DNA of 64,000 nt from a virus (Duplodnaviria; Caudoviricetes): positions 32,001 to 96,000 of the IMG/VR virus record IMGVR_UViG_3300031414_000007; one strand, written 5' to 3'. Of this stretch, positions 22,295-38,962 are shown in pieces. The notes below the pieces were generated by a model that was not told the origin of the DNA, searched no databases, and saw nothing but the letters and a program-made list of their open reading frames with translations. Numbering within the stretch: position 1 is the first letter of the stretch; every line of letters begins with the position of its first letter. The translations under genes and the position numbers were made by a program.

Positions 22295-22329
22295 GATACC
22301 ATCCTCTTATTATCTACTCGCATAAATTA

Positions 22330-22929
22330 TCATGCGAATTTCAAAACGAGGTCGTTCACGATAACAGCCTTGGACTGGTCAGTAGGCGTGGTGTTGTTTG
22401 CATACACTTTACCCCCAACCAGGCGTAAGTCTGCATTCGACACCTCGCTGCCAACACTACACACAGCAAGAAATGCAGCGCCTGCATCGTTGTTGCCTGT
22501 CTGCAAGTTGATCGTGTTTGAGTACGCACCGACAACAATACACCAAGTAGGCGTAGCGTCTTTCAGGAAATAACTCGAACGGTTATCGCTGTACGAGACA
22601 GCAAGGCGCATGTTCATCGCAGACGCAAGCAGCACAGGCACGTTATTGGCAAGCAGTGATATAGCAGCCTTGTTGCCTGTAACACCACCAACATAGTCAG
22701 CAACGCGGGCATTCAACAGAGGCCCGATGCGCGTGTACACTGCGCTGTTGCCTGCCAACTGAGTGGCCTCTGCAAGCATTGCTTGCACTTCTGCTTTAGT
22801 AGGCATCGTGCCAGTATAAAACAGAATTGAGTTGGTAGTTGTGGTGAACGAGGTAGGTACCGAAGTTCCAACAAGACCGTTGTATGCACTGCGCATCATC
22901 GCATTCGCTGTAGCAGGAAGCATTCTCAT
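22330..22929 (-). CDS. virion fibre-family paralog (short type)
   Basis: ILFYTG-MP, ATPTW, VG....ADLRL motifs shared across the array. Confidence 0.75.
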   Translation of the reverse strand: MRMLPATANAMMRSAYNGLVGTSVPTSFTTTTNSILFYTGTMPTKAEVQAMLAEATQLAGNSAVYTRIGPLLNARVADYVGGVTGNKAAISLLANNVPVLLASAMNMRLAVSYSDNRSSYFLKDATPTWCIVVGAYSNTINLQTGNNDAGAAFLAVCSVGSEVSNADLRLVGGKVYANNTTPTDQSKAVIVNDLVLKFA

Positions 22930-23840
22930 TACGCACCCTCCACAAAGTTGTCAGCTATACGAATGGTAAGATCAGAAACAGCCATCATGCCATACTCGCC
23001 AATAGAAGTCGTACCCAGTGTAATATCGGTACCTACATCCAGCACCATGCCGAAGTAGTCCTCAGTTGTAGAGCCTAGGTAGGCTTGAGTTGTACTCGGC
23101 ACACTTCCCGTCAGTGGTACAAGCACAACGTGCGTCAGAGCAGCAACAACAAAGTCACTGCCTTTCTCGACATACGGAGTGAATGACAACTGGTTCGTAG
23201 TAGACGTACCGTTCATGCTCAAGCGTAACTTACGCGCCAGAATATTCAGACCATCATTCATGCCTGTAGTGACAGTGATACGCGTCCAGGCCAGAGTTGT
23301 CGGGTCTTGATACTCAAGGCGAATGTTACCAGCATTGATTACGTTCGCATTTGGAATAAAGAACGAACGGAAGCGTAGAGTACGGCCGTAGTCGTATTCC
23401 ACTGTGTCGTTCGCATCCCACGCAGGAGCAATACCAACAGTTACGTCAGAACAAGCAGCAACGTTGGCCAGCACCTGCTGCGGTGTCTTACTCCATCCTG
23501 CGCTTGGAGTATAGCGAGAGTATTCTGGGAACACCGCATACGTCTGGATAGGCTGTTTGGTAGTCGGGTCAATTGTAACACGACCCTGACCGTAGCCGCC
23601 AATCGGCATAAGACTGCGTGCCTTGCTGTACTGACGGCATAAGATACCGTTAGCATCGGCGACCTGAGTCTGGTACTTGATCTCCACGGCAGCACGAGAC
23701 GAAGCGACAAGGTCAACCAACGTCTTAGGAACGTTGTTGCTACTACCGTTTCGAAAGAACGCTGCCCAGCCACTTGCGTTTGTAGAAGTGCCTACAGTTT
23801 GCAGTAGCTGGTAGAGCGCTTGTTTTTCAGAGACTAACAT
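22929..23840 (-). CDS. virion fibre-family paralog (long type, jelly-roll insert)
   Basis: EYDYG...ARKLRL insert; LTHVVLV...LDVGTDITL C-module. Confidence 0.7.
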   Translation of the reverse strand: MLVSEKQALYQLLQTVGTSTNASGWAAFFRNGSSNNVPKTLVDLVASSRAAVEIKYQTQVADANGILCRQYSKARSLMPIGGYGQGRVTIDPTTKQPIQTYAVFPEYSRYTPSAGWSKTPQQVLANVAACSDVTVGIAPAWDANDTVEYDYGRTLRFRSFFIPNANVINAGNIRLEYQDPTTLAWTRITVTTGMNDGLNILARKLRLSMNGTSTTNQLSFTPYVEKGSDFVVAALTHVVLVPLTGSVPSTTQAYLGSTTEDYFGMVLDVGTDITLGTTSIGEYGMMAVSDLTIRIADNFVEGA

Positions 23841-23849
23841 AATGCCTCC

Positions 23850-24383
23850 TTAGAGTTTGATACGCATATCAGCAACACGCAGAGGCTGACCAGCAACAAC
23901 AGCACCGCCCAGGATTTTCATATCAGCAGTAGAGTTCTCGTCACCAACAGTACCGACGATGCAGTTATACAGGTTAGTGCCTGTAGTAAAGCCTGACCAC
24001 GTATCAATGGTCGTACCAGCAGAACACTGACGCAGCATGAACCACGTAGGCGTACCAGAAGCAGCGATGTTGAAAACGTTAGGCTGGCTGCTCAGTGGCA
24101 GATTCAGTACGTTGTTATCGTAGTCCATGGTAGGAGTGAACGTACCAAGAGATACGTTGCCTAAGAAGTTTGCTGTGGTTGCGAATGCAGAAATGGCAGC
24201 GGCCGACCACGTAGTTTGAGTGCTCGCAGTCGTCAACAGAGCCTGTAGTTGTTCATCAGTTGGCGGAGTACCTGAGAACAAAGCAAGGTGAGTCAAGTTG
24301 CCGCCAACAGATGCACCCGGCAGCATACGAGTGCAGATAGCAATCTGAGACTGTAGTGTGTTGTAGGCTTTAGAAACGCGCAT
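23850..24383 (-). CDS. virion fibre-family paralog (short type)
   Basis: LALFSGTPP, SGTPTWF, GTVG...ADMKILGG. Confidence 0.78.
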   Translation of the reverse strand: MRVSKAYNTLQSQIAICTRMLPGASVGGNLTHLALFSGTPPTDEQLQALLTTASTQTTWSAAAISAFATTANFLGNVSLGTFTPTMDYDNNVLNLPLSSQPNVFNIAASGTPTWFMLRQCSAGTTIDTWSGFTTGTNLYNCIVGTVGDENSTADMKILGGAVVAGQPLRVADMRIKL

Positions 24384-24384
24384 G

Positions 24385-25449
24385 TTAGTATACCTCAGTT
24401 GCGACAGGTTTATAAGTTACAGTGAACGAGCTAATAGCCTGTTCCTGCGCAGGGTAAACAGTGGCGTCGTTAATAACGAGGTCGTAGTTCGCTGCCTGTT
24501 TCAGATCGTCAGTGATAGATACGCCATAGTGCGCAAAGTAACGACCAAATGATATAGCCGCCAGATTGACGGAGAAGGATGGTGTTGTCCACACAGCTCC
24601 GTAGGCGAAAGGTACCATGACGGCGTGCTGAATCTTGCCCAAAACACGCGGCGAAGTACCAGAAGCATAATCACCGTAGAAGTGCAGAGCGAATACACCG
24701 ACGCCGTTAGGGAATGGGTTTGCCGCAGCTTTCGATACGATGCGGAAGCGACGGGCCTGAACAGTAGCTGGAAGCTGGAAGAACTTCTCTGAGTTCAGGG
24801 CAGTAGCAGGCAGATTAACAGACAGGTTAGTGACGTCTACCCACGAACTGCCTTGCTGCATCTGTAAGAACAATGCAGTGGCTGCGCTGTTGATAAACAG
24901 GTTATTCGAGCTGTCTGTTTGCGTAAATCCAGCGAGAGAGTTGATAACCACTTCGGCGCCAAAGTCATACTCAGCAAACGTCCAGGAACCATCAGCATTG
25001 GCCTGCTTCACTGCCGGAATAGAAGCGGTCTTAGCCAGTGCAGCACAAGAGGTCAGCGTTGCGTTTTGAGTAGACGCACAGCGATGGGCCATGATAGTGG
25101 CAAAGATAACATCCAGCTGGGAACCGAACTGAGACAGGTTACCTACTAGATCTTGGTAGACCGTGCTGTATGTGGCGAACGTCACTTTTGGCAGTACGCG
25201 CTTGCCGCGATAGCCCTGAACTGTAGTCCACGCAGGAGCAGGAGATACCTGATAGTTGGAGACAGTTGTTGGAAGGGCCTGATGTTGGGAGTTACCCAGT
25301 TGAGTCTGCAAGAACGCACGGCTGCTTACCATGTTGTTCAGAACGGTTTGCAGATCGTAGTTCAACGTGGCGGGAAGATTCCCTTCCATAAATGCGCCGA
25401 ACACTACTAGAGGAGTGTTCTGATAAATCGGTAGAATTTTCATATTCAT
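24385..25449 (-). CDS. virion fibre-family paralog (long type, discoidin/F5-8C-like insert)
   Basis: AEYDFGAE...LPATVQARRFRI...FYG. Confidence 0.75.
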   Translation of the reverse strand: MNMKILPIYQNTPLVVFGAFMEGNLPATLNYDLQTVLNNMVSSRAFLQTQLGNSQHQALPTTVSNYQVSPAPAWTTVQGYRGKRVLPKVTFATYSTVYQDLVGNLSQFGSQLDVIFATIMAHRCASTQNATLTSCAALAKTASIPAVKQANADGSWTFAEYDFGAEVVINSLAGFTQTDSSNNLFINSAATALFLQMQQGSSWVDVTNLSVNLPATALNSEKFFQLPATVQARRFRIVSKAAANPFPNGVGVFALHFYGDYASGTSPRVLGKIQHAVMVPFAYGAVWTTPSFSVNLAAISFGRYFAHYGVSITDDLKQAANYDLVINDATVYPAQEQAISSFTVTYKPVATEVY

Positions 25450-25509
25450 GCCCTTGGTTTAAAGACAGTTCAAATTAATGACGTGGCAGCCGAAGCCACC
25501 ACGTAAGTA

Positions 25510-26034
25510 TTACAGTTGAATGGTAAGATCAAGGAAGCGATAAGCCTGACCCGTCTTAATCGTACCACCAATGAACTGTAGTTCCGCATCAGACCCTTGA
25601 TCGCCGACAGTGCCTATCCAGAAAGGACCAGCTATCGCAGTATTGTATGCAAAGCCAGCCCACGAGGCCACAGTGTTCGAAGTAATGCTACGCGCAACAT
25701 AGAACGTAGGCGTGCCGTCAGCCTCTCCGGTCAATGTCGAAGATAAACCCCCAAACGGCAAAGTCACGGTACGAGCAACCGCATTAACTATGGGCGTCAT
25801 TGGAGGGCAGGCCATATCTCCGAGATAGTTTGTCTGGAGCAGACCGAGATTTGATACAACGCTTGCCCAGTTGAGCACACTACCTACACCACCATGAGGC
25901 ATCAAGTCCAGCGCTTTGCTGATCTTAGGTGCAGTGCCTTTGAATAACGCTATGTGCAAAAGCCCGTTGGAGATCTGAACCGCAGGAAACGCAGCATTCA
26001 TCTGAGCAAGCGAAAGACCTTTATTGCTAATCAT
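25510..26034 (-). CDS. virion fibre-family paralog (short type)
   Basis: IALFKGTAP, DGTPTF, GTVG...AELQFIGG. Confidence 0.78.
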   Translation of the reverse strand: MISNKGLSLAQMNAAFPAVQISNGLLHIALFKGTAPKISKALDLMPHGGVGSVLNWASVVSNLGLLQTNYLGDMACPPMTPIVNAVARTVTLPFGGLSSTLTGEADGTPTFYVARSITSNTVASWAGFAYNTAIAGPFWIGTVGDQGSDAELQFIGGTIKTGQAYRFLDLTIQL

Positions 26035-27107
26035 ACGCCCCTCCCAACGAGTGCATCTTGCTTAATACGGAACGTCGGCACAGGTGCTTCACCGAACGTT
26101 ATGCTGTAGCTTGTGTCCGGCATAACGATATCCGTACTGGCACCTAACTTGAGATCGTCAGTGACAGTAAGGTGTGTCATTCCAAAGTAACGACCGGCAA
26201 CAGTCGCAGCAACCGCAGGAAGATTGAAGTTCCACGGCGTACTGTTTGCGTAGCTCGCATTCGCCATCAGGTTCAGTATAGACATATGCTTGTACTTACC
26301 TAATGTGCGTGGCTTCGTTCCTGTATAGTTGCCGTAGAACTGCAAGCTAAACGGATAGTGCCCTGTAGTAGACCATGGCCATGCTACTGTTTTGTTGATC
26401 AGACGCCACTTCTGCGCTTTAATTGTCGCAGGTAGGCTGTAGGCAACAGGCGAGTAGTTGCTGTTGGTACGAACGTTTGCGTAAATATCTACAGCATCAG
26501 TCCAGACATCTCCGATAAGAGCTTGCAGCACAGTGCCTTGAGTACCGAGAGGCATAAGTGAAGCAACACCGGCACCTATGTTCACACCAACAAGTCCTTT
26601 AAGTTCCATCTCAGCGCCGAAGTCATACTCGGCCATCAGCCAGTTACCTGCCTCGGTAAGACTGTATTGAGGACTCAGATAGTTGCCTGTGTTTACTGAG
26701 AACTGCGTCTGCGTCGTGCCCATCTTGTGCGCGAGAATGGTAACAGCCACGCTCTCATTGTACGCATTGACGGTAGTGGCGAAACGCGCATCAAGCGCAG
26801 GCAGTCGTACCTTAGGCACGATTCGCATCAACGCATTAATAGCGGCACCGTAGCCCAAAGAGCCGCTAAACTCTACCCACGCAGGATAGAAGTTCGTGCT
26901 GAGAAACGTCGATGCAGTTACTGGGTTGAACTGCCAACGAAACGGCGCAGTGCTTGCAGGCTGCTTTTGAAACAAGCGAATGGCAATAGCATCGTTGAAG
27001 GTGCTATGAATACCACGCTCACCATTTGCAGGCACATCGGTGTCATACAACAGACCCAGCGAGAACACCGAAGCAATGTTCGCCGCTTGGTACGGGAAAA
27101 GTTCCAT
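26031..27107 (-). CDS. virion fibre-family paralog (long type, discoidin/F5-8C-like insert)
   Basis: AEYDFGAE...LPATIKAQKWRL...FYG; clear paralog of 24385-25449. Confidence 0.75.
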   Translation of the reverse strand: MELFPYQAANIASVFSLGLLYDTDVPANGERGIHSTFNDAIAIRLFQKQPASTAPFRWQFNPVTASTFLSTNFYPAWVEFSGSLGYGAAINALMRIVPKVRLPALDARFATTVNAYNESVAVTILAHKMGTTQTQFSVNTGNYLSPQYSLTEAGNWLMAEYDFGAEMELKGLVGVNIGAGVASLMPLGTQGTVLQALIGDVWTDAVDIYANVRTNSNYSPVAYSLPATIKAQKWRLINKTVAWPWSTTGHYPFSLQFYGNYTGTKPRTLGKYKHMSILNLMANASYANSTPWNFNLPAVAATVAGRYFGMTHLTVTDDLKLGASTDIVMPDTSYSITFGEAPVPTFRIKQDALVGRGV

Positions 27108-27116
27108 AGCGCGTCC

Positions 27117-27698
27117 TTAGCTGAATGTGATGTTGTTAAGAATGATAGTGCCATTCAGATTGAACGTACCATCGTTATTGTCCGTGAGAGACGCACCCAT
27201 AGCAATCAGATCCTGAGCTGTGAACTCAACAACCGTAGCAACTCCAACAGTTGCAGGAGCGAGTGTAGTGGTGGTCTGACTAATGAACAGATACATGCGA
27301 TTGAAAGGCTTCGCATAGGAGAAGCGACCAAGCAGACTATTCAGGTCAAACATGCGCTTACCATTGCCTGCGTTGACAACACGCAAAGTACCTGTCGAGG
27401 CATAAGCAGTGTCCATCACGCATCCTGGAACGTTAGCTGCCAGATAAGTACGCAGAGAGTTCAGGCTAAACAGAGCTTGCGCTTGGTTAGTCCAGGTGTT
27501 ATCAGGCACCGCATCTCCTGAGGAGAACACAATCGCGGCAGCAGGCTCAGCAGAGACATGCGTACCACCAGCTTGCATCGCATTTGCCGCATTGTATGCA
27601 GTGACTGAGCTAGGCAGCCACGGAGCTTCAACAACAGCAGCCGCAGATGAACCCAAAACATCGCCACGCATATTGAGCATCGCTTTAGAGATATACAT
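27117..27698 (-). CDS. virion fibre-family paralog (short type, divergent)
   Basis: IVFSSGDAVP; similar size and position. Confidence 0.6.
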   Translation of the reverse strand: MYISKAMLNMRGDVLGSSAAAVVEAPWLPSSVTAYNAANAMQAGGTHVSAEPAAAIVFSSGDAVPDNTWTNQAQALFSLNSLRTYLAANVPGCVMDTAYASTGTLRVVNAGNGKRMFDLNSLLGRFSYAKPFNRMYLFISQTTTTLAPATVGVATVVEFTAQDLIAMGASLTDNNDGTFNLNGTIILNNITFS

Positions 27699-28600
27699 CA
27701 GCTACTCCTTTGAGTGAAGCGAAGTTTGGGGCAGTACATCATGTTCTTCTGATTAGGATAAACCTGATCAGTCAACTTGAATGGACCCTGCGTACCGACA
27801 GCACCGGCAGTAAACATGATGTTGTCAGAGTAATCAGTATCGCCATGCGTGAACGTATTACAGTGTGCAAGAGCCGCCCACGAAGGAGAGGTCACGGCGC
27901 TGGCTGGTGGCGTGTCTACAGAACTAAGCAGAATACGCATAGCAGTAACAGAGGTCGCAGTAGAACTTTTATAGCGGTAGCGCTTAGACGCAACAGGTGC
28001 AGATAAAGCCAGACACGTAGAGTCACCAGCAATAGCAGCCGCGTTGCCCAACGATACTTCCTGCCCCTGATCATCAACAGCAACAAGGGAGAAGATAGAG
28101 TTAGGAGTTGTGTTGTACTTAACGTGCGTCACAGTCACCGGAGTGTCGAACTCAAAGTCAATATCAACTCCACCCATACGAGCAGCAGGAACGGTGCCGC
28201 TACCTGATCCCATAATCAACGTGACGTCGCGATCAGTAATGCCTGAACGAGTGATACGGTGAGGCATAAGCTGAGATACCACAGTAGCAGCAGTACCAAC
28301 GGTCCCATAGTACGATACCCCTTTGGGGATGTACTGAGATTGGAGAGCAAGTGCAATCACGTTGCCATTCTCAATTCCAGTAATAGGGTTTCGCACAAAG
28401 CCGATTGCCTGATTGTACATATCGGCAAGTGACTTATTGTTGAAGGCTGCATCAAAGCCTTCTTTTGACGTAGGCAGCTTACCACTAAACGCAAACAGAT
28501 TCCAGCCCGCCCCTGCATTAGGGTCATTGAGCATGGTTGCGTTATTCGCGTTTGTGCCAACGACTGACTGCGCCATGATGCGTGTGTTAATGATCTTCAT
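27698..28600 (-). CDS. virion fibre-family paralog (long type)
   Basis: LFAFSGKLP, FEFDTPV...SKRYRY, SPSWA...GAVG. Confidence 0.72.
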   Translation of the reverse strand: MKIINTRIMAQSVVGTNANNATMLNDPNAGAGWNLFAFSGKLPTSKEGFDAAFNNKSLADMYNQAIGFVRNPITGIENGNVIALALQSQYIPKGVSYYGTVGTAATVVSQLMPHRITRSGITDRDVTLIMGSGSGTVPAARMGGVDIDFEFDTPVTVTHVKYNTTPNSIFSLVAVDDQGQEVSLGNAAAIAGDSTCLALSAPVASKRYRYKSSTATSVTAMRILLSSVDTPPASAVTSPSWAALAHCNTFTHGDTDYSDNIMFTAGAVGTQGPFKLTDQVYPNQKNMMYCPKLRFTQRSS

Positions 28601-29055
28601 TAGCTCACCACCGGTGCAACAGATTTATTATTCGCTTTCGTGTCAGACAGATCGAGCGTAGGAACAGACACACGGAACACAATGTTGTCGTACAGAGGTT
28701 CAATCGTCTGATCTGTTACGAACGCACCACTGACAAGAGGGGCATCCACACGAGGTGCTGCTGGGTTCGACACGAAAGTACGTGGCGTAAACTTCGACTG
28801 TACCTGAGTAGCAGCAGGACCGTTGAGAACAATCTGGTCTGCGTCAGATACGCGCTGGTTAAGAATCTGCGTCCACGTATAGATAGGCAGGTAAGCAGAC
28901 AGAGAAGACGTAACACGTTCCTGAGAGAATGCGGAAACTTTCTCGTTGGTCGTCGGCTTCACAGGCTGAGATGCAGTGCTTATCTCAAGCTGAGACATAA
29001 CGAACACGTAGTCAGCAAAGAGATCTGGGTCATACGCAATAACTGGTACGAACAT
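28600..29055 (-). CDS. hypothetical virion protein
   Basis: AGGAG RBS, TAATG coupling. Confidence 0.7.
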   Translation of the reverse strand: MFVPVIAYDPDLFADYVFVMSQLEISTASQPVKPTTNEKVSAFSQERVTSSLSAYLPIYTWTQILNQRVSDADQIVLNGPAATQVQSKFTPRTFVSNPAAPRVDAPLVSGAFVTDQTIEPLYDNIVFRVSVPTLDLSDTKANNKSVAPVVS

Positions 29056-30140
29056 TAGTAGACTCCTTGACGAATGCTGTAGTGATCGATGATGGCCGTG
29101 CATGAGGCCGACGCACCAGAACCGTAACCACCAGTAACAGTGAACGCAGCGCTGTTGGACATTTTCATCACGTACACAAAGGTATCAACCTGAGTGCCGT
29201 CAATGTAGATAGTGTGCGTACCAGTAACTGCATCATACACGTACTTGAAGCGGACAGGCACGGTAGTTTTTAACGCAGCATACGGAGCCATGTCACGCAC
29301 GACTTTCGTTGTACCGCTATCGCCAACGTTGTTTCGCACTACAAAGGCTTTCTCTGTGGTGCGGTCAAACGCTAAGATGCTGCGGTTGGTCAGAGTCGCA
29401 TAGTAACGCAAAGGCTGCCATTCAGCAAAGTCCGTGTCCGACGTTTGAGCATAGTCACACTCAATGGTGAATGACTTGCTTACGTCAACGATGTTGCTGT
29501 TATTGTATTGCAGCACACCGGTGGTGCCCATGTTGATGCCATTAGCCACAGGCTTAACGTCACCAGACATGCCATATTGGTTGCCGATGTAATCAAAGAA
29601 CGAACCAGTATTGAACGCGTTGGCATCGAACGCAGTTACTTCATTTCCCGGCAGCCACGTAGCGAGCGAGTTCTCAACCCACATGTTAGCAAGAGGAATG
29701 TTAAACGACAGGATAGAAATCTGCGTCTTATATCCGTTCGGGTCGTACTTAACGTTCAGGTCAGGATAGAGCAGAGTCACATCCGTTCCTACGGTCAAGC
29801 ACACAGGCAGAATGCCACCGAGAATTAGATGCGTAGGTACACCCTCAGCCGTAGCAGTAAGAGCACAGTCAGACACTGTAATCTTCTTACGGTCGATTGT
29901 GCGGACGCAGTTTGTGCCTTTAGCGATCACAGTGCAGATGCCAGTAGAAGCAGCAAGCGCCGCGTCAAACATATAACCTGCACCAGTCTGAGGCTGGAAG
30001 TTCAGGCACTTGTTTAAGTCTGCTTCGACGTAACCTGCATTCAGCTTAACCAAGTAGCAAGACTTATCGTCCGCAGTTGATTGAGCAAACAGACGCGCTA
30101 ACTGAGGCACAGCAGAAGTACCAAAGAGCTTGTAATCCAT
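29055..30140 (-). CDS. fibre-family module fused to ConA/LamG-like domain
   Basis: EGVPTHL...TVGTDVTL N-module; C-terminal FTIEC...YVYD...IYIDG...IDHYSI. Confidence 0.7.
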   Translation of the reverse strand: MDYKLFGTSAVPQLARLFAQSTADDKSCYLVKLNAGYVEADLNKCLNFQPQTGAGYMFDAALAASTGICTVIAKGTNCVRTIDRKKITVSDCALTATAEGVPTHLILGGILPVCLTVGTDVTLLYPDLNVKYDPNGYKTQISILSFNIPLANMWVENSLATWLPGNEVTAFDANAFNTGSFFDYIGNQYGMSGDVKPVANGINMGTTGVLQYNNSNIVDVSKSFTIECDYAQTSDTDFAEWQPLRYYATLTNRSILAFDRTTEKAFVVRNNVGDSGTTKVVRDMAPYAALKTTVPVRFKYVYDAVTGTHTIYIDGTQVDTFVYVMKMSNSAAFTVTGGYGSGASASCTAIIDHYSIRQGVY

Positions 30141-30141
30141 G

Positions 30142-31098
30142 TTATACCTCGGTAGACAGACGAAGCTGGGCAACCGCAGCGAACTCACCTGGGCCGAGAG
30201 ATGTGGTCATCAACTCGATAGGCTTGCCGCTACCTATAGCACCAACTTCACAGGCAAAGTAAGTAGGAATGTAGTTACCGTTAGCAAGAGCACCGTAGTT
30301 AGTGTCCTGAATAAGAACCATAGCCCACTTAATTGATTTGTATGCAGCGTTACGGCCAACATCAGAAGCAGTAACAGGCAGCACACGACGAGTACCAGAG
30401 GTCTGAATGAAACGGTAGCGCTTAGACTGCGGAATAGCGGTAGCAATCACGTTACCTTCTTGGTTCGCAGCAATTGACCACGAAACAGCAGTGCCTAAGA
30501 TACCCAGCTCGTCGATAGGTGCAATCGTACCAGCACATGCAGAGCTAACGTCACCAACGTCAGACAACACGCCGTCAATAGTAATAGCGAAGTCATACGT
30601 CAGGTCAGTAGATGACAGATGGATTCCCGGCATAAGTGCATCATGCGGAACACCTGCGTAATCCCATGGACGATAGCCAGCAGGACCGATACCCCACAGT
30701 GCTTTGTTGCCTGCGTCGTTACTCGTAAGGTATGCAGTGTTAATCTGCACAGCAGACGCACCGTTATACCCGACAGGACGCGCCTTTGATGGGTAGTGAA
30801 TGGTTGCACCGTTCTTGATCTCGTATACATGACCAGAACGCGCTTTCCAACCTTCCTGTTGATCTAAGAGAGGCAACAGACCTTCAGTTGTAGGACGGAG
30901 CACAAGACGCGTAGCAGCAACTGCGTTATCGAACAGGTTGCGCATGTCATACAGGTGCTGCGAGAAGTTACCCTGAGCGGCCAAGTCAGTATCGAAGAAG
31001 AACACGTTAACGGTCTGCCCGTTAGACAGGTTCGACGCCCAACCTGAACCCAAGTTGAGCACACTGAACGGCAGTAAGTTGTGTCCTAAGATGCGCAT
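30142..31098 (-). CDS. virion fibre-family paralog (long type)
   Basis: YDFAI...SKRYRF insert; IKWAMV...EVGAIGSGKPIEL. Confidence 0.72.
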   Translation of the reverse strand: MRILGHNLLPFSVLNLGSGWASNLSNGQTVNVFFFDTDLAAQGNFSQHLYDMRNLFDNAVAATRLVLRPTTEGLLPLLDQQEGWKARSGHVYEIKNGATIHYPSKARPVGYNGASAVQINTAYLTSNDAGNKALWGIGPAGYRPWDYAGVPHDALMPGIHLSSTDLTYDFAITIDGVLSDVGDVSSACAGTIAPIDELGILGTAVSWSIAANQEGNVIATAIPQSKRYRFIQTSGTRRVLPVTASDVGRNAAYKSIKWAMVLIQDTNYGALANGNYIPTYFACEVGAIGSGKPIELMTTSLGPGEFAAVAQLRLSTEV

Positions 31099-31595
31099 TA
31101 GAACTCCTTAGAGTCTTTAATAACGGTGGCGAGGAACTTACCGTTACGCAGGTTAGATGACGACAGAATCAAGTCGGCGCCTGAACCCGCACCACCGATA
31201 GTCAGAATCAGGAAGCCACCATAAGGCGTGCTTGCAATATCTTTGTTGAAGACAATCACGTTGTACGTGTTCAACAAGTCGGCGATAGAGCCAGCAAATG
31301 TGCCTTGCAGTGTAGCGCTCAGACGGAACTTATATTTGTTATCAGAGCCATGAATCCAGCGCACAGGGTTAACGGTAACAGAAGTCAGATCAAGCACCGC
31401 AGTTGCACCGATAGCTGTCTGCACTGTAGTGCCATCGGCAACAACAATGTTTGCAGGGTCTGGTACTTTAGCGAGGCAGATTGTCTTCTGCATATTTGAC
31501 AGGCCGTACTTCAACGGAGGATCAGTAGCTGGACGTTTGCCTGCATCTGGAATCACAATACCGTTGGCGACCAAAGGGAACGAAACTATTTCCAT
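31098..31595 (-). CDS. virion fibre-family paralog (short type)
   Basis: LTIGGAGSGADLILSS C-module; TAATTT upstream. Confidence 0.7.
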   Translation of the reverse strand: MEIVSFPLVANGIVIPDAGKRPATDPPLKYGLSNMQKTICLAKVPDPANIVVADGTTVQTAIGATAVLDLTSVTVNPVRWIHGSDNKYKFRLSATLQGTFAGSIADLLNTYNVIVFNKDIASTPYGGFLILTIGGAGSGADLILSSSNLRNGKFLATVIKDSKEF

Positions 31596-31663
31596 TTTGT
31601 ATCTCCAGTTAACTCGCTATAAATTACTGACAAGTCGAATCGCATAGGAAGTCAAAACTTGTC

Positions 31664-32716
31664 TTACATCAAAAACCGTCGCTTTATCACCACAGCGTCG
31701 TAGGCATTCAATGTTGCAGCAGGCACTTCATTGGGATTTATGTCTGAGGCCGCATTGAAATCAACACCCGCTTTGGATAGAACAACGTACACTGGAGCGT
31801 CACGCTCGAATGCTATCGGCATCGCTCCCCACTTTAGTGCATAGGCAGGAGTATCGTCATGGGTGCCTTGTCCGAAGTATGCCCCGTCAGGCTCTGAGGC
31901 AGAACTGCCGAGAGAACCCGCTGAATACGACGTGGTGTAAGACCAGCCCCCACCGGAGAAGTAGTACGAGCCATAAGTTGATGAACTGAATGGTTGAAAC
32001 AGTCTCGGGAAGATCGTATCAGGGAAGGTACTCTGATTGTACGGAGAACCCGCATACAACGAACTCAGAGTCTGCACGTTAATCGTTACGGTGGCTATAT
32101 CGGCAGTTACATTCAACGCAGTGATTCCCACGTTTTGCAGATAAGAAGATCCTGTCCGTGTCCATCGCCCTATGCCACTACCCCCGCCTCCAGTGATAGT
32201 ACCTCCATCACTTGAAGTCACACTGGCAGATGTTTTAGGGACAGAGTAAAGAGACTTCGTAAACGCTGAGCCGTCGAATGCAGGCAGAACCATATCAGAA
32301 TAAGCGGGTACGCTAGGACTTCCGTTACCGTACGAATCCAGCAGACTGCCTGTACCTTCCTGAGCTGTACCGATGCCAGAGTCTAACGTACCTATAGCAT
32401 AGTAACGACGGAACATGTCAATAGCGCTGACAACGCGATTACCACCAGTCTGAGAAAACCCAGACTTACGGACAGAAGGCACGTAGTTATAGAATAGGCG
32501 ATTACCTTTCCAGCCAGCACCACGAACGCATTGCATTTCATTCTGAGCATTAACAAGAGCGCAGAAGGAGCGAGACTTATTGATCTTGTCAATCATCTCA
32601 GGATAAGACGACTTACTCGTTGGAGGCTCAACATCATCAGAGAAAAGGAACATGCGACGACGAGCCGTCTCAATCTTCTTCTCTAAGATTTGCGCTCCGT
32701 TTGAAATGAAAAGCAT
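31664..32716 (-). CDS. virion fibre-family paralog (long, divergent)
   Basis: MFLFSD..PP; LKWGAMPI...AGVDF. Confidence 0.6.
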   Translation of the reverse strand: MLFISNGAQILEKKIETARRRMFLFSDDVEPPTSKSSYPEMIDKINKSRSFCALVNAQNEMQCVRGAGWKGNRLFYNYVPSVRKSGFSQTGGNRVVSAIDMFRRYYAIGTLDSGIGTAQEGTGSLLDSYGNGSPSVPAYSDMVLPAFDGSAFTKSLYSVPKTSASVTSSDGGTITGGGGSGIGRWTRTGSSYLQNVGITALNVTADIATVTINVQTLSSLYAGSPYNQSTFPDTIFPRLFQPFSSSTYGSYYFSGGGWSYTTSYSAGSLGSSASEPDGAYFGQGTHDDTPAYALKWGAMPIAFERDAPVYVVLSKAGVDFNAASDINPNEVPAATLNAYDAVVIKRRFLM

Positions 32717-32745
32717 AACCACTCCTTAGCAAAACTTTATTCGGT

Positions 32746-33786
32746 TCACATAAGATAAAGTGTCTTGGAACCGAAAGGGTTTTCAGCTTCGATGCTCAAT
32801 ACTGCAACATCACCAGTGTCCGCGGGTGCGGTCTGTATAATGTCTTGGCCAACCTTGGCACGAAGCATATACCCTTGACCATTGCACTTGAACATCATCA
32901 TGCAAGAAGTCAGAGTTACGGCAGGCGTGTTTGTCTTGCCAGTAACCGCAGTGCGCATAGAAAATGCGTCTGCACCACGAGTGTAACCACTAACACCATT
33001 TGAGGTGGTCGGGGCTTCCCACGCAGTGAACTGATTTAGCCCACTGTAGCTGTAGCGTTTGCCTACAGGTCGAATGAACGTAATGTGAGGAGCATTCGCA
33101 TCTCGATAGATAGAAGGAATGATCTGCACAGGAGAGGAGGTAGTTTGGATGTATGAGTAAGATTGAGCGCCGGTCTCTGCTCTTGTTGAGAGGTCAAGAG
33201 AAGCATTCATAAACCCAGCATCATAACCACTGTACGTTCCCCAAAAGCTGTCAACATTTCGAGCGTACTGATTGCCTGCCTTAGAACTGTATGATTCAAT
33301 CTGAGCGGACTGTCTCATATTCTCAGGAAAGACAAGCATACACGAAGATGGCCAATAGTACCCTGTCTCACATGTGTCTCGACTCACACCGTTCCAGCCG
33401 TTAAACACGGGGTTGCCGTTAGACCACTGCTGGCCATTGCCCTCCGCCGTGTCGTATACACATAAGTAACGCTCGGCAACAGCTTTATACGTCTGCACTG
33501 CCGTATAGCTATTGTGAGGCGCAGCGTTGCCTGAGATAAGATTGGCGCTACGTGCTGGGTAGAAGTAGTTGTCCTTAACACCACTCATAGGACTCAAGGT
33601 AATCTGGTCGCCCCGTGTGTCTGAGCTATTACCCCAAGCACGAACAGACTGCACCTTTGAGATGTAGTGTTCTTCGTCCAAATGAGCGTCAGATATATCC
33701 GTCTGATCGTCAAAGTAAAGCGCACGATGTACTGCCAGCTTGGCTATCGTGTTCGCCTTGTTATTGTGGTACGTTGCGTATAGCAT
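32746..33786 (-). CDS. virion fibre-family paralog (long, divergent)
   Basis: ALYFDD; LTSCMMM...KVGQDI. Confidence 0.6.
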   Translation of the reverse strand: MLYATYHNNKANTIAKLAVHRALYFDDQTDISDAHLDEEHYISKVQSVRAWGNSSDTRGDQITLSPMSGVKDNYFYPARSANLISGNAAPHNSYTAVQTYKAVAERYLCVYDTAEGNGQQWSNGNPVFNGWNGVSRDTCETGYYWPSSCMLVFPENMRQSAQIESYSSKAGNQYARNVDSFWGTYSGYDAGFMNASLDLSTRAETGAQSYSYIQTTSSPVQIIPSIYRDANAPHITFIRPVGKRYSYSGLNQFTAWEAPTTSNGVSGYTRGADAFSMRTAVTGKTNTPAVTLTSCMMMFKCNGQGYMLRAKVGQDIIQTAPADTGDVAVLSIEAENPFGSKTLYLM

Positions 33787-33865
33787 AAACTGTCCTTAAG
33801 CCCTAATGTGTGGCTTGCTAAAAACACCGCCTGATGCGGTCACGCCCATGAGGATTATTGTTCGC

Positions 33866-34795
33866 TTACACGCTTATCACTTCTTCAAATGGCAACTCTA
33901 TCCGTGACATGCTAATCGTCGGAGTATTCCCAGCCTGCTGCGTCGAAGCCGTGTAATCTTTCGATTGCTCCGGCTTGAACAGCTTAACTTCATTTCCCCA
34001 CAGCATTGGGATAACACAGTACGACAGATCGACACCTGACTCAGGAACACCGATAGCCGCAGTTGGAACCGTCGGCAGTACAGTGCCAGATTTGTAGGGC
34101 AACTGAAATCTACTGTTACCTGAGATAACCACATGTCCACACCATAACAGTAACACCGAGCCAGTATCAGCATTGATGTTGTTGTAGACAGGACGGGTTG
34201 TAGGGCTAGAGTCAGATTCGTGTTGAGATACTGTCGGGCTGACAAACACGTCCGTTGTTGTGCGCAACAGAGCTATACCTTGCGTCATGATTCCGCTGTA
34301 CGAAGTGGACTGCCCTCGTGCAATATCTGAATACATTTGAGGCAGTACCCAGTTAGCGTTAGGTATAGGTGAATTACCAACACGACTAGGAATCAGACTC
34401 GCAATGGTTCCGTTTGTAATCCACGGCTTACCCGCAGTGGACATGGTAAACGGAGTAACACTGTCATTGCCTACAAGCCCTTCGTTCTGACCGTTGCATC
34501 GACCACTAGCATTGAAGCCAGTAGGTATAGGCAACATAGTCTGAGCGAATGCGGCCTCAGATTTGAAGTCAGGGATAGCGCCTAAGTTTGATATGCGTGT
34601 GAGTTTTAATTGACTGCTTGTACCTACCATTACAGGCGTCAGCTTCACCTGATTGTTGTCAACGATGGTCTCCACGTGAGTTCGTGCGTTACGCATATAG
34701 TCCATGATGCCTGCAACAGTCATCGTAGAAAATGGACGCTCGGAAAACATCGCATAGAGTCTAATATCTTTCCTCTTTGGTATGACGAGTTGCAT
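33866..34795 (-). CDS. virion fibre-family paralog (long, divergent)
   Basis: LYAMFS..P; LSYCVIP C-module. Confidence 0.55.
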   Translation of the reverse strand: MQLVIPKRKDIRLYAMFSERPFSTMTVAGIMDYMRNARTHVETIVDNNQVKLTPVMVGTSSQLKLTRISNLGAIPDFKSEAAFAQTMLPIPTGFNASGRCNGQNEGLVGNDSVTPFTMSTAGKPWITNGTIASLIPSRVGNSPIPNANWVLPQMYSDIARGQSTSYSGIMTQGIALLRTTTDVFVSPTVSQHESDSSPTTRPVYNNINADTGSVLLLWCGHVVISGNSRFQLPYKSGTVLPTVPTAAIGVPESGVDLSYCVIPMLWGNEVKLFKPEQSKDYTASTQQAGNTPTISMSRIELPFEEVISV

Positions 34796-34866
34796 ACAAT
34801 ATCCTTGATAAAGAACTTGTCTTTGCGGACATATGCAAAAACAGAGCGAAAACTCTGATATAAGGT

Positions 34867-34896
34867 AAAAGGGCCCGTACCATTACGATACAGGCC
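34867..34896 (-). terminator. intrinsic terminator
   Basis: GGCCTGTAT...GTACGGGCC-CTTTT on - strand. Confidence 0.7.
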
Positions 34897-34903
34897 ATTT
34901 CAG

Positions 34904-35485
34904 TTACACCAGCAGACGACCTGCGATAGTGATTGCTACACCATTGAGAGTGGTGTCAGCAGTGTCCGGTGCAACAACACGAAGCTGATCTCCAGCAACC
35001 AGAATGATCTCTTGGTCCAGATAGGCAGCAAGAGGAGCAAACACACCAGTCTTAGAGCCAGCGCCAAACGTAACAGTACCGAGCTGAATAACAGCTTGGG
35101 TGGCACTGTCATAAGCACTTACTTTGAATACAGCCTGAGCCGTAGCAGCAACATCAGCAACAGCCATAGAGCCGACAAAGTTTTTGATGATTGCAGTAGT
35201 ACGCACAGATAGGTAACGAGCGATCTCTTGTCCACCAGCGTAGCGCTTGAGAACACTCATACCCACGTCATATGGATTTACAGACTGTAACTGGTTAACC
35301 CACTTGGTGCGCACGGCAGAATATACATACAGACCTGGCTGATTAGAGCCAGATACAGCAGTCAAGTTCCATACACGACCGTTAGTTGGGTTAGCTGGAA
35401 AGGTTGGGCCAGATGAATTAGGGTCACCTGGTGCGCGTGTAATCTGAGACTGTGCGCCTGCGAGCTGAATACCAAAAGCGTACAT
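34904..35485 (-). CDS. virion structural/fibre protein
   Basis: AGGAG RBS; FPANPTNGRVW motif. Confidence 0.72.
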   Translation of the reverse strand: MYAFGIQLAGAQSQITRAPGDPNSSGPTFPANPTNGRVWNLTAVSGSNQPGLYVYSAVRTKWVNQLQSVNPYDVGMSVLKRYAGGQEIARYLSVRTTAIIKNFVGSMAVADVAATAQAVFKVSAYDSATQAVIQLGTVTFGAGSKTGVFAPLAAYLDQEIILVAGDQLRVVAPDTADTTLNGVAITIAGRLLV

Positions 35486-35495
35486 ATTTTTCTCC

Positions 35496-35717
35496 TTAGG
35501 CGATTCGCACATGACCCGTAACAGCGTACGGGAATGTTACTTTGACCGTGTTCTTGTCAACAATGATAACGTCGAGCGGCAGCACTTGATGGAGTTTACC
35601 ATCAGGCATGTTCACGCAAGTAGTCACTGCGACTTCACGGCCGAAGTTGTGCGTAATCGCCCATTCAGCGGCAGCCTCTTCCTGTAGGAAGGTGCGCCCC
35701 ATTGAATAGTTGATCAT
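35496..35717 (-). CDS. stand-alone W-x-I-x-H-N domain protein (73 aa)
   Basis: WAITHNFG...V.P..V...D.N...V.F; GAGGT RBS. Confidence 0.72.
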   Translation of the reverse strand: MINYSMGRTFLQEEAAAEWAITHNFGREVAVTTCVNMPDGKLHQVLPLDVIIVDKNTVKVTFPYAVTGHVRIA

Positions 35718-35730
35718 AGAGACCTCGTTA

Positions 35731-36663
35731 TTACAGATTATAGAGTGCCGCGGGTCTGCGAACTAGAGAAACGGTGTCTGCGAAACTGCCTTGATAGACA
35801 TTTCCTGGAACCATGTCGCTGGGAACTGTGAAGTCGTTTGCATCCAATAGATACATCAGAAGATCGTTTGTACCTGTAGAGACAACAACAGCAGCCCAAG
35901 ACAGATTCACAGATTCATCGGTTGAAGCAGTGATCGGCAGACTTGCAGTACGTTTGTCCGTAGGTCCACTTGTGACATTCGGGTAGCTTGTCGTTCTAGT
36001 CGCATTGTTAAACGTAATGCCCCGCAGAGTTTTTGTGCTTACTGTAACACCTGCATTTATGCTATAGTATTGATACCTACCGCTAAAGTTTTCGTAGGTT
36101 TGCCCAAAAGCAGCAGGCTGTGCGTTTGATGCGTCAAAGTGGCTGACTGCATTCATGGCCATAGTGGTGTATGTAGGATAAGAGCTTGCATAGAAGAAGG
36201 ATGTTACTCCCACTGTGGGTATCGAGACACGAACACTTATATCCAAAGCGCGAACGGCATCAGGAACTAGATAGATCGCGCTTGGTGTATTAGCACCGAA
36301 AGTAACTCCATAACCACCAGCCCAAGAGGGTCCAATGTCAGTCAAGAATGCACTGGACCCTCTGCGCGTGGACTCCTTCTTACCGCCCTCCATTGGAATA
36401 GCGGTTAGAGAGAACAGATCGTTTGAACTGAAATCCACATCACCTGACATGTATGACATTTTAGTTAGGTAGTACGTGCTACCCAATCGACCTCTGATTG
36501 GGTTAAGCCGAAATGTTCTCCCTGACATATCGTACACTGTAGTGCGGGCCTCTCCTTGCTTCGCTCTCCAGTCAGCAAGAGACCTAATGTCCTTTGTCGT
36601 TGTTTCATCGAAAAACGATGCGTATCGCAGAACATTATCAGTAGACAGGAGTGCCATCTGCAT
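35731..36663 (-). CDS. virion fibre-family paralog (long, divergent)
   Basis: YASFFD; LSWAAVVV C-module. Confidence 0.55.
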   Translation of the reverse strand: MQMALLSTDNVLRYASFFDETTTKDIRSLADWRAKQGEARTTVYDMSGRTFRLNPIRGRLGSTYYLTKMSYMSGDVDFSSNDLFSLTAIPMEGGKKESTRRGSSAFLTDIGPSWAGGYGVTFGANTPSAIYLVPDAVRALDISVRVSIPTVGVTSFFYASSYPTYTTMAMNAVSHFDASNAQPAAFGQTYENFSGRYQYYSINAGVTVSTKTLRGITFNNATRTTSYPNVTSGPTDKRTASLPITASTDESVNLSWAAVVVSTGTNDLLMYLLDANDFTVPSDMVPGNVYQGSFADTVSLVRRPAALYNL

Positions 36664-36675
36664 ATGCCACCTACC

Positions 36676-37272
36676 TTAGTACAGGATGACCGTACCAGAT
36701 TGCGGCGTATCGAACGTGATAGTGAGCTGGCTGGTGCTGTCGTGTACGATAGACTTCGGCTGTACTTCTTTGCTGCCCTGATAGATACGAACAGCAGGGT
36801 TATAGCCTAGGTTATGTACAACAACCCACTGCGCTTCATCGGTGAAGGTAGCGGTGAATGCGACGGTAGGAGTAGGCAGACCGTTTTCAACACCAGACAG
36901 CAACACGGCAGTACCGGCAACTGGCTCAGGGAACAGAACCACCGTAGTGTTCGCATCCTGAGAGTGAATGGAGGAAGGCTGAACAACGTCACCATTTTCA
37001 TCGTAGCATTGTACGATTGGCGTAGCGGTGTTCATGTTGTGCGTAATCTCCCAGCGAGAAGACGCGGAAGGTTTCGAGTAACGGTACATCGTCATCTGTT
37101 GAGTCAGAGGTACCCAAACAGGCACATCGCCAAGTTCGACGCACAGCATCAAACGCTTATCCATAAGAATGGCCATGCCTGGCTTAGGGTCAGCAGGCCA
37201 GTCGGTAGCAACGTCGAACACGAAGTTCTTAATTGAGCCGAACGTTAAGTCGAGCGTCCCGAGGACTTTCAT
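36676..37272 (-). CDS. virion protein with two W-x-I-x-H-N domains
   Basis: WEITHNMN and WVVVHNLG repeats; N-terminus paralogous to 37340-38962. Confidence 0.78.
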   Translation of the reverse strand: MKVLGTLDLTFGSIKNFVFDVATDWPADPKPGMAILMDKRLMLCVELGDVPVWVPLTQQMTMYRYSKPSASSRWEITHNMNTATPIVQCYDENGDVVQPSSIHSQDANTTVVLFPEPVAGTAVLLSGVENGLPTPTVAFTATFTDEAQWVVVHNLGYNPAVRIYQGSKEVQPKSIVHDSTSQLTITFDTPQSGTVILY

Positions 37273-37339: not shown

Positions 37340-38962
37340 TTACGCTTCTGGTTCAACGTAGGCGTTAGTACCAGTTACGAATGCGATTGCGACTTTCTTC
37401 GCAGTAGTCAGCTCGACGCGCAGGCTGTTTGCGTCAATGAACACGACTTCATCAGGGATGATTTGATAGCCGGTATCATCAACAACGGTAACAGTACCGT
37501 ACTTCACACCAGCGTTGTGCGTGAAGGTGTGCGCAGTTGCAGCAGCGTCGCCGCCAGCAGTTTTATCGTACTGGTACAGTTTAGCAGCAGCGCCGCCAGC
37601 AGAGCTGGAGATAGCATCGTCAACATATTTCTTGTTGACAGCAGACTCGTCGGTCAGCGGGTCGGTGCCAGTGATGGTCAGCGCAGCAACTTCACCACCA
37701 GTAGCGTCGATGAAGCCGCCAGCAGTTTTAACCGCAGCAACGTCAACGATGATTTTGCTGTTGGTAGTGTCCTGTTTCAGGCCGTTACCCAGGGCAGCAG
37801 CAGCGATCTGCTCGTAACCCACACCGCCGTCAGCAACTGCGATACCGTCTACAGTGCGAGACAGAGTAGTGCCATCCAGTTTAACGCGAGTAGAACCAGC
37901 GTTATCTTCCAGACCACCAGCAGCATCCAGCTTCGCAGTAACAGCGTTAGAACTGATCTGAATACCAGCACCAACTTTAACGTTAACGACGTTGCCAGAT
38001 TTTTCCAGACCATCACCAGCGTTGAACTCAGAAGCACCGCCGAAGGTAGTCCACACAGTACCGTCAAAGCGACGATACTCTTTGATCGCTTTAACCCAGG
38101 TCACTGCACCGCCAGCTTCGCTGTCAGTCGGGTCGAATACGATTACGAACTTGGTGCCGTCGTAACGCACGATCATGTTATCAACCAAATCGGTGATAGA
38201 ACCAAAGTTCGGGTTGATCTGGTCAGCAGCCAGAATGATGTACTGCTTGCCAGCTACCAGCTCTGGGTCGAGAGTACCATCTTCCTGAATCGCGTCGGAG
38301 TCGTGCAGCCAGTCGATACCAGCAACGGCGTTGTCAATATCGATCTTACGAGCAGCGTCGTTCGGGTTAGCAGGAGCGGCCAGGTTAGCAACGGTATGAC
38401 CGTTAGCGTCGAGGTCACCAGAGAGCTGGCCGTTAGCTGAGTCCAGCTTGCCTGTCAGACCAGTTTCAACAGTACCGACTTTACCGTCCAGTGCAGTGAT
38501 CTGAGACTGAATGTTAGAAGTCGCGCCAGACACATAGCCCAGCTCGGTAGCAGTTACGTTGCTGGTGGCCAGTTCGTTATCAGCACCAGCGATAACAACA
38601 CCGTTTTCAGTCAGGCCAGTGATTTTGTCTTGCTTGGTAGCAGCAACGGTTTCGACGTGTTTCTTAGAAACAGCAGCGTTGTCGCCAGAAGCAGACTGGT
38701 CAGGACCAGACAGCAGAAGGTCAGCAGTCATCGGCACAGAGCCGTCAGCCAGAACAGCACCTTCTAAGGAGCCGCCACCGCCGCCGAAATCTTTGATTTC
38801 AGTACCGTCGAAGTATTTGTACTTCGCATCAGTGCTGTTATACCAGATACGCGCAGTTTGCGCAGCAACCAGATCGCCTACAGCCGGGTCGGCGGTCAAA
38901 ACTTCTGGACGGAAGTTCTTAATCTGACCGCTAAGCATCAGTTCAATATTACCAGTACGCAT
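37340..38962 (-). CDS. abundant fibre protein (coiled coil plus beta-repeat shaft)
   Basis: LAAPANPNDAARK-D, AGDGL/GAGI shaft repeats, DESAVNKKYVD, C-terminal HN domain; strong codon bias. Confidence 0.82.
   Translation of the reverse strand: MRTGNIELMLSGQIKNFRPEVLTADPAVGDLVAAQTARIWYNSTDAKYKYFDGTEIKDFGGGGGSLEGAVLADGSVPMTADLLLSGPDQSASGDNAAVSKKHVETVAATKQDKITGLTENGVVIAGADNELATSNVTATELGYVSGATSNIQSQITALDGKVGTVETGLTGKLDSANGQLSGDLDANGHTVANLAAPANPNDAARKIDIDNAVAGIDWLHDSDAIQEDGTLDPELVAGKQYIILAADQINPNFGSITDLVDNMIVRYDGTKFVIVFDPTDSEAGGAVTWVKAIKEYRRFDGTVWTTFGGASEFNAGDGLEKSGNVVNVKVGAGIQISSNAVTAKLDAAGGLEDNAGSTRVKLDGTTLSRTVDGIAVADGGVGYEQIAAAALGNGLKQDTTNSKIIVDVAAVKTAGGFIDATGGEVAALTITGTDPLTDESAVNKKYVDDAISSSAGGAAAKLYQYDKTAGGDAAATAHTFTHNAGVKYGTVTVVDDTGYQIIPDEVVFIDANSLRVELTTAKKVAIAFVTGTNAYVEPEA

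Follow-up and report, generated by a model that had tools for sequence, protein, structure and literature searches.

Garland-protein homologues, half of them carrying lectin-type domains, make up a long/short gene array in an Alexandravirus-like jumbo Erwinia phage

The window analysed here is a stretch of 64,000 nucleotides (nt) from IMG/VR virus record IMGVR_UViG_3300031414_000007, and its positions 22330-36663 hold an array of genes with alternating long and short products. We found that the short (S) proteins are homologous, in sequence and in fold, to tail proteins that form garlands in two Agrobacterium phages, namely gp125/gp127 of Milano and gp012/gp014 of 7-7-1. Five of the long (L) proteins appear to consist of the same garland module, interrupted by a jelly roll of the discoidin/CBM32 type. 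We propose, with a probability of about 0.6, that the genes g06-g17 (22330-31595) encode six long+short pairs of garland homologues which form a lectin garland at the baseplate or at the fibre tips. The garland module and the discoidin fold are already known, as are discoidin domains in jumbo phages (PMC7824862). What is new is the recognition of this unannotated array as a 12-gene expansion of garland homologues, in which half of the genes encode a garland module with a lectin domain spliced in. Modelling suggests that its organisation as pseudo-symmetric heterodimers, also new, is probable.

By its sequence, the source is an Alexandravirus-like jumbo Erwinia phage: the segment 22330-36663 shares 92.6% nucleotide identity with Erwinia phage pEa_SNUABM_30 and 75-79% with other Alexandravirus genomes (AD1, Alexandra and many pEa_SNUABM isolates). 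An identical gene order is annotated in five more lineages, namely Y3 (Sasquatchvirus), Yoloswag, JA11 (Salmondvirus), pEa_SNUABM_5 (Rivsvirus) and Yersinia phage fHe-Yen9-02, where nearly all genes of the block are called "hypothetical protein". The segment is filled by 17 open reading frames (ORFs) and one further ORF of 73 amino acids (aa), all on the minus strand. We named the 17 ORFs g01 (35731-36663) down to g17 (22330-22929). The array sits in a minus-strand block together with a gene of phrog_16122 ("virion structural protein"), and in Y3, Yoloswag, JA11 and pEa_SNUABM_5 it has annotated tail-fibre genes upstream of it. None of the 17 proteins or their three upstream neighbours reached the threshold of a Pfam model. 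The twelve genes that concern us most are the following.

g06, 31098-31595, minus strand: 165 aa, S-type garland module
g07, 30142-31098, minus strand: 318 aa, L-type, with a jelly-roll insert that splits the garland module
g08, 29055-30140, minus strand: 361 aa, variant L with an N-terminal S-like and a C-terminal ConA-like (Laminin_G_3-like) domain
g09, 28600-29055, minus strand: 151 aa, in the short-partner position of g08, no family link
g10, 27698-28600, minus strand: 300 aa, L-type
g11, 27117-27698, minus strand: 193 aa, divergent S-type
g12, 26031-27107, minus strand: 358 aa, L-type, paralog of g14
g13, 25510-26034, minus strand: 174 aa, S-type
g14, 24385-25449, minus strand: 354 aa, L-type, with residues 1-77 and 266-354 garland-like and 78-265 a jelly roll
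g15, 23850-24383, minus strand: 177 aa, S-type garland module
g16, 22929-23840, minus strand: 303 aa, L-type
g17, 22330-22929, minus strand: 199 aa, S-type

A preliminary description of this DNA had reported a strict long/short alternation, repeated four times from 28600 to 22330, with translational coupling. The alternation holds. The lengths of g10-g17 (300/193/358/174/354/177/303/199 aa) give four exact alternations, and counting g06/g07 and g08/g09 brings the totals to six long and six short genes. The junctions within g06..g13 and within g14..g17 measure -4 to +9 nt, consistent with translational coupling; g08 and g09, for example, overlap by 1 nt. Between g13 and g14 there is a 60-nt spacer, which contains a hairpin.

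Pairwise BLASTP detects few relationships among these proteins: g12 with g14 (E 4e-30), g13 with g15 (E 4e-20), g15 with g17 (E 1e-4), and g01 with g03 over the N-terminal 100 aa (E 4e-4). PHROGs places g13, g15 and g17 in phrog_17152, and g12 and g14 in phrog_22190. An all-against-all hhalign comparison of orthologue alignments built from 12 related genomes gave probabilities of 100% for g12-g14 and g13-g15, 99.5% for g15-g17, 95% for g14-g16 (over the jelly-roll core), 95% for g01-g03, 93% for g07-g10 and 91% for g04-g05 (full length); seven flanking genes scored at most 4% against the array. These comparisons define three families: S (g06, g11, g13, g15, g17), L (g07, g10, g12, g14, g16, with g08 as a variant) and V (g01, g03, g04, g05). 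We leave g02, g09 and the 73-aa ORF unassigned, and g09 also shows no link to the deep S profile introduced below. The genes that had been described as about 15 paralogs are located where they were said to be, but they represent three families and some unlinked genes, with a common module within S and L. The shallow profiles from the 12 relatives gave no link between S and L. This link emerged only with an S profile of 168 sequences and excision of the central part of the L proteins.

This deep S profile aligns to a garland profile of six sequences (7-7-1 gp012/gp014, Milano gp125/gp127 and two Rhizobium phage homologues) with an hhalign probability of 96.3% and E 1.6e-9 over 120 columns. Alignment A1 compared with gp012 alone still gave 38.8% and E 3.2e-4. 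Two blocks are conserved between S and garland proteins. One consists of a hydrophobic strand and then (F/Y)SGxxP, the other of GTxTW(F) and then G(T/S)V.D....(A/G)DLK(I/L). The two motifs that had been noticed earlier at the N- and C-terminal ends of the array proteins coincide exactly with these blocks. This split module proved real for 10-11 genes, that is, g06-g17 except g09 and in part g08; no significant S-type module was found in g01, g03, g04, g05, g02 or g09. Among the more distant members, g06 matches the deep S profile at 94.5% (E 8.3e-8, 124 columns) and g11 at 24.8% (E 7.9e-4, full length).

The structural evidence points the same way. An AlphaFold (AF2) model of g15, with a predicted local distance difference test score (pLDDT) of 87, matches chain 9rkv_A in Foldseek with E 5.6e-5. 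Superposition by VIA gave Z 9.3 and a root-mean-square deviation (rmsd) of 4.2 Å with 132 of 139 residues aligned; the next best match had Z 5.5. 9RKV is the tail-fibre complex of Agrobacterium phage 7-7-1. We identified its 139-residue chain A as gp014, because the gp014 gene encodes a 141-aa "virion structural protein" and adjoins the tail fibre gene gp015. In 7-7-1 this "garland protein" was modelled into the electron cryomicroscopy (cryo-EM) map as homodimers, 36 of which are arranged around the distal portions of both the long and the short tail fibres (PMC12796354). In Milano, gp125 and gp127 were fitted into the garland density as homo- and/or heterodimers that form a bead-like chain, and models of both kinds of dimer suit the map equally well (PMC10811340). 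The g15 model also matches orthologues of g11 in BFVD, from Yoloswag (E 2.5e-4) and from JA13. Sequence-profile searches of the PDB with the S, L and g08 alignments returned no meaningful match.

A profile search of 1.8 billion cluster representatives returned 151 clusters (50% identity) that match the S profile at E <=1e-3, and among the matches listed most are stand-alone proteins of 160-215 aa. In the phage database the S family is confined to the present clade, with 56 records. From the phage's own genome record, which is 79% complete, a narrow S profile recovered only the three close S copies.

How the L proteins relate to this module was less apparent from sequence. The AF2 model of g14 (pLDDT 89) contains a galactose-binding-like jelly roll at about residues 78-265. 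Foldseek returned 29 matches of the discoidin/CBM32/neuropilin-b1 type at E <=1e-3, the best of which was the discoidin domain of CASPR2 (1.2e-5). An exhaustive VIA search found 32 chains with Z >=8, nearly all of them discoidin, CBM32 or F-lectin domains; the best was fucolectin 3cqo (Z 9.9, rmsd 2.9 Å, 137 residues aligned, model range 81-264), and a CBM32 reached Z 9.4. The Pfam model F5_F8_type_C (PF00754) is matched by 4 of 34 relatives at E <=0.1, with a best E of 3.6e-5. The strand motifs "..DLG....V" and "RY.R.", which are typical of discoidin-type domains, are visible in g07, g10, g12, g14 and g16. In the model, the flanking segments 1-77 and 266-354 of g14 (77 + 89 residues) together correspond to an S protein in size and in the order of their secondary-structure elements.

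Without any excision, the C-terminal part of g07 and the N-terminal part of g10 already match the deep S profile at 59% and 51%, respectively. We then cut the central part from each L alignment, with 12 cuts each, and compared the remainder with the deep S profile. After removal of residues 90-205, g10 matched end to end at 94% (E 1.5e-7), and g07 did so at 91.5% (E 8.5e-7) without residues 75-223. Control alignments of similar length, taken from the V family and from flanking genes, stayed at or below 0.6%. The split architecture is thus demonstrated for g07 and g10. In the same test g16 scored 21 (about 7%); g12, g14 and g16 are tied to L through links between L-family profiles (100/95/93%). 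Column entropy, compared by domain and between interface and remainder in g14 and g15, showed no clear difference.

The variant g08 is built in another way. The S (g15) model matches the g08 orthologues of Yoloswag and JA13 in BFVD with probabilities of 0.96-0.99. Laminin_G_3 (PF13385) was found in 4 of 10 g08 orthologues (best E 7.7e-5), and g08 of the window itself reaches E 0.025 with 15.2 bits against a cut-off of 27.6. In Dickeya phage JA11 a 524-aa protein, JA11_080 (L004 8680-10254), joins a g07-like protein to the C-terminal ConA-like domain of g08, with 32-39% identity to g08 residues ~157-361. This fusion shows that domains have been shuffled within the array.

A further question is whether adjacent long and short proteins may be partners. 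Complex prediction for g14+g15, each with its own alignment, gave an ipSAE of 0.91 (0.88, 0.91 and 0.91 in three runs), and the best of three controls reached 0.47. This mark was attained by 58 of 80 solved complexes and by 2 of 110 mismatched pairs. The runs had at least 89% of contacts in common, and the partners had a pLDDT of at least 90. Confident contacts of g14 involve residues 1-13, 25-31, 50-54, 296-311 and 345-354, and within the lectin range 78-265 only residues 97-99 and 102. The predicted interface would accordingly lie in the garland module and leave the lectin domain free. In the models, the N-terminal arm of g14 (4-8) packs on g15 strand 138-145, and the N-terminal helix of g15 (2-10) packs on g14 304-309, the equivalent strand. 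These reciprocal contacts suggest a pseudo-two-fold interface, as would be expected of a homodimer turned heterodimer.

Gene content agrees with such pairing. There are as many long as short copies (6+6), and between lineages the pair is duplicated or lost, never one member. Only Alexandravirus, Y3 and the pEa_SNUABM_46 group have the g12/g13-g14/g15 doubling. In the Yersinia phage there is a separate extra pair, the long copies of which are sisters (97/97). Doubling of the pair occurred independently in two lineages. Lineage-specific doubling is visible in both trees, that of L and that of S, yet they are not mirror images: in Yoloswag and S5 the single-copy L groups with g14 and the single-copy S with g13. 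Co-evolution of the partners is therefore not proven.

Taken together, these data lead us to the following model. Each long protein would pair with the short protein that is translated beside it. In the pseudo-symmetric interface, each N-terminal arm may dock on the conserved "VG..ADL" strand of the partner and leave the lectin domain free. The dimers could then chain on the baseplate periphery or on the distal tail fibres, as in Milano, in 7-7-1 and in the baseplate arms of A511/phi812. The resulting multivalent lectin array would attach reversibly to a polysaccharide of the host surface, and irreversible adsorption would follow. Presence in the virion and sugar binding, like chaining and location, are features that we infer. 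The preliminary description had proposed heterodimeric or heteropolymeric building blocks of a fibre or hair system. The building blocks find support in the homology of S to garland proteins and in the predicted dimer of g14+g15, but the whisker coat that was offered as a possible identity does not.

Several points weigh against the lectin garland. The complex prediction covers one pair, g14+g15, and the control that reached 0.47 was one in which an unrelated protein replaced g14. Since the garland and gp105 dimers are solved structures, the high score may reflect likeness to them and not specificity of the pair. After excision, g14 and g12 showed no significant match to the S profile (5.6% and 0.1%), and in the window neither of them matches any Pfam model at E up to 1. 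Their garland module is suggested by the L-family links, and for g14 also by the strand order of the model and the predicted interface. The sixth pair (g08/g09) is incomplete, because g09 has no detectable family. Presence in the virion is argued from homology to the virion proteins of 7-7-1 and Milano, and a sugar-binding function of the L insert from its predicted fold.

The alternative that survives best, although we consider it unlikely, is that the L-S dimers polymerise into the sheath hairs of Y3/AD1-type "hairy" myoviruses instead of a garland at the baseplate or fibre tips. The clade of the window (Y3, AD1 and the JA phages) has indeed been described as "hairy Myoviridae", and the hair-forming proteins were stated to be unknown (PMC6143709); a 2026 review only describes the hairs (PMC13282480). 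Dimers of the garland fold are able to form beads-on-a-string filaments (PMC10811340), the array lies within a late tail/fibre gene block, and six different dimers could set a fixed filament length. In its most specific form, which we hold to be just as doubtful, six different dimers in fixed order would build a hetero-polymeric lectin filament of defined length, equivalent to the tail hairs of Y3/AD1-type phages. If this were true, such hairs would constitute a new kind of phage appendage, made of garland modules instead of trimeric fibres. However, every solved relative sits at the baseplate or the fibre tips, and the S profile found no match in the hairy phages Lu11, PaBG, CBB and Atu_ph07, where divergence could hide relatives and the blank is no proof. 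A published proteome study of PaBG does not cover the array. The same profile has 10 matches in phage NCTB. For these reasons we rank the garland at the baseplate or fibre tips above sheath hairs, and the whisker coat of hairy jumbo myoviruses loses ground as an explanation.

Slightly less probable again is that long and short proteins are not partners, each of them forming homodimers like 7-7-1 gp014, and that the alternation is the footprint of a repeated two-gene duplication. The 7-7-1 garland proteins were modelled as homodimers (PMC12796354), and the Milano map does not favour heterodimers over homodimers (PMC10811340). The control at 0.47 indicates that S tends to dock in silico, and the discordant trees (Yoloswag and S5) would also fit this view. 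On the other hand, g14+g15 scored 0.44 above the best control, the copy numbers are equal, the genes are tightly coupled, and it is always the whole pair that is duplicated or lost between lineages. A small gene coupled directly downstream of a larger adhesin-like gene is the usual layout of fibre chaperones, and one distant S-module gene has a tail assembly chaperone gene nearby. It is nevertheless very improbable that the short proteins serve the assembly of the long ones, as chaperones or scaffolds, and are missing from the mature virion, given that S is homologous to annotated virion proteins, of which 7-7-1 gp014 was modelled into a cryo-EM map and Milano gp125/gp127 were fitted into garland density.

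Arrays related to the one that we read as a lectin garland also occur elsewhere. Long/short pairs are present in Y3, Yoloswag, JA11, pEa_SNUABM_5, the Yersinia phage, NCTB and one metagenomic contig. In NCTB (L026, LT598654, 141-154 kb) the 10 S-profile matches fall in one 13-kb block; five are stand-alone S genes, and the other five lie at the N- or C-terminus of long open frames (311-381 aa). This block suggests that the array is older than the enterobacterial phage clade. The metagenomic protein P0217, from a 75-kb contig, has an S-type garland module and, after it in the same chain, two discoidin-like domains, and it is embedded in another run of alternating ~300- and ~175-aa genes. A second metagenomic protein, P0199, consists of an Ig-like domain and an S module. 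Its neighbours are PTR-repeat tail-fibre proteins, a tail assembly chaperone (PF16778) and a 914-aa PKD-domain protein; this phage encodes a ribonucleotide reductase, and its gene content is not that of the clade of the window. The context of P0199 suggests that the S module travels with tail-fibre loci. Rhizobium phage RHph_N46 (192 kb; L020 3244-4609) has three consecutive garland-like genes (161, 141 and 142 aa), which adjoin genes for a DUF1565 protein and WD40/YVTN-repeat proteins; the 161-aa protein matches the S profile at 38%.

Upstream of the twelve genes lie the members of the V family and two unlinked ORFs.

g01, 35731-36663, minus strand: 310 aa, V family
73-aa ORF, 35496-35717, minus strand: between g01 and g02, conserved
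g02, 34904-35485, minus strand: 193 aa, highly conserved
g03, 33866-34795, minus strand: 309 aa, V family
g04, 32746-33786, minus strand: 346 aa, V family
g05, 31664-32716, minus strand: 350 aa, V family

When 43 proteins of this variable zone were pooled from 13 genomes, 38 of them, including g01, g03, g04 and g05 of the window, formed one family linked by phmmer. Most of the weak links fall within the first ~100 residues, and the C-termini are divergent. The number of V genes varies from none in the Yersinia phage and one in JA11 to four in the window and five in Yoloswag. A shared N-terminus and a variable copy number are the usual pattern of adhesins with a common anchor and exchangeable tips. 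Most simply, the V proteins would therefore be exchangeable host-recognition subunits with a common anchor. In comparisons of V with L the in-register scores were 24-28 (controls 9-12), but the probabilities remained below 10%, and we claim no homology of V to S or L. Matches of g05 in the ESM Atlas are meaningless, because the Atlas model has a pLDDT of 0.25.

The protein encoded by g02 has a mean column identity of 83%. It matches phrog_7049 ("tail fiber protein") with E 7e-5, its profile weakly matches residues 473-551 of the Milano tailspike gp124 in the PDB (E 0.056), and hhalign against gp013/gp126 gave a similarly weak 8.8% (score 24.9, controls 10-17). Likeness of g02 to the C-terminal domain of a tail fibre or tailspike, and to Milano gp126 and 7-7-1 gp013, should be regarded as leads only. 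At the position of the 73-aa ORF, a gene of 219-225 nt is annotated in most relatives examined. Upstream of the array, a 198-aa protein (36676-37272, minus strand) and a 540-aa protein (37340-38962, minus strand) share a common domain (hhalign 76%), which weakly matches the galactose-binding model PF23623 (E 9e-4). The 540-aa protein is the phrog_16122 member of the block.

Finally, three TAATTT sequences mark boundaries of the array.

31621-31626, minus strand: TAATTT core of the promoter-like motif CAGTAATTTA, ~30 nt upstream of g06
25472-25504, minus strand: hairpin (25481-25504), then TAATTT (25472-25477), between g13 and g14
22324-22329, minus strand: TAATTT just past the g17 stop, upstream of the next gene

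The preliminary description had listed internal TAATTT elements. All three array copies are intergenic and on the coding strand, and TAATTT as an enriched element had to be rejected, as the window contains 13 copies (10 of them on the minus strand) where 21.8 are expected. The CAGTAATTTA motif upstream of g06 orthologues is kept in 12 of 12 genomes compared, where the flanks diverge; the copy of the Yersinia phage reads TATAATTTA. Outside the lineage with the g12/g13 doubling the TAATTT before g14 is not conserved; together with the hairpin it likely forms a terminator/promoter boundary. A similar ATAATTTA follows g17 in most related genera compared, again between diverged flanks. The form (A/T)TAATTTA stands ~25-35 nt ahead of three gene starts, those of g06, g14 and the gene that follows g17, and probably serves this phage clade as a late promoter.

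Recognition of garland proteins dates only from 2024-2025 and was limited to two small Agrobacterium phages; with 151 clusters the family is now far wider. In jumbo phages of plant pathogens (Erwinia, Dickeya) it has expanded into paired subunits, one with a lectin domain. The array provides named candidates for tail or baseplate appendages and for the first contact with host exopolysaccharide, which is relevant to the host range of biocontrol phages against fire blight and soft rot. It may also offer a natural example of how a homodimer becomes a family of pseudo-symmetric heterodimers through duplication and domain insertion.

How does this array compare with known systems? The fold and dimer of garland proteins have been likened to those of T4 gp8 and A511 gp105, baseplate connectors in beads-on-a-string chains that join fibres to the baseplate (PMC10811340). 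The g15 model superimposes on these BW3TFN connectors (T4 gp8, A511 gp105 and the phi812 arm segment) with Z 4.4-4.7 and rmsd 4.2-5.4 Å over 123-136 residues, and there is no sequence signal. The individual values are Z 4.7, rmsd 4.3 Å and 128 residues for A511 gp105 (6hhk_B), and Z 4.4, rmsd 5.4 Å and 136 residues for T4 gp8 (1n7z_A). Because Z 4.4-4.7 ties with unrelated PRMT beta-barrels, we do not claim membership in this wider group. The lectin-type part, residues 78-265 of g14, has the fold common to discoidin, F5/8 type C, CBM32 and F-type lectin domains (Z 9.9-8, rmsd ~3 Å, 125-140 residues aligned). In contrast to known domains of this type, it is inserted inside another domain instead of appended, and the g14 version has an extra helix pair at residues 98-123. 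The extra domain of g08 differs from that of the other L proteins in being C-terminal and ConA-like. With the garland proteins of Milano and 7-7-1, the array shares the sequence signature and fold of the S module, at least two paralogs per genome and a place in a tail-fibre gene block. Dimers, which those proteins form, are predicted here for g14+g15. The S proteins are ~30-60 aa longer and have an N-terminal helix. Unlike the two garland genes of Milano and 7-7-1, which are carried by 69-kb phages, the present array counts 12 genes arranged as long+short pairs, half of them with an inserted or appended lectin-type domain, in a 260-kb jumbo phage.

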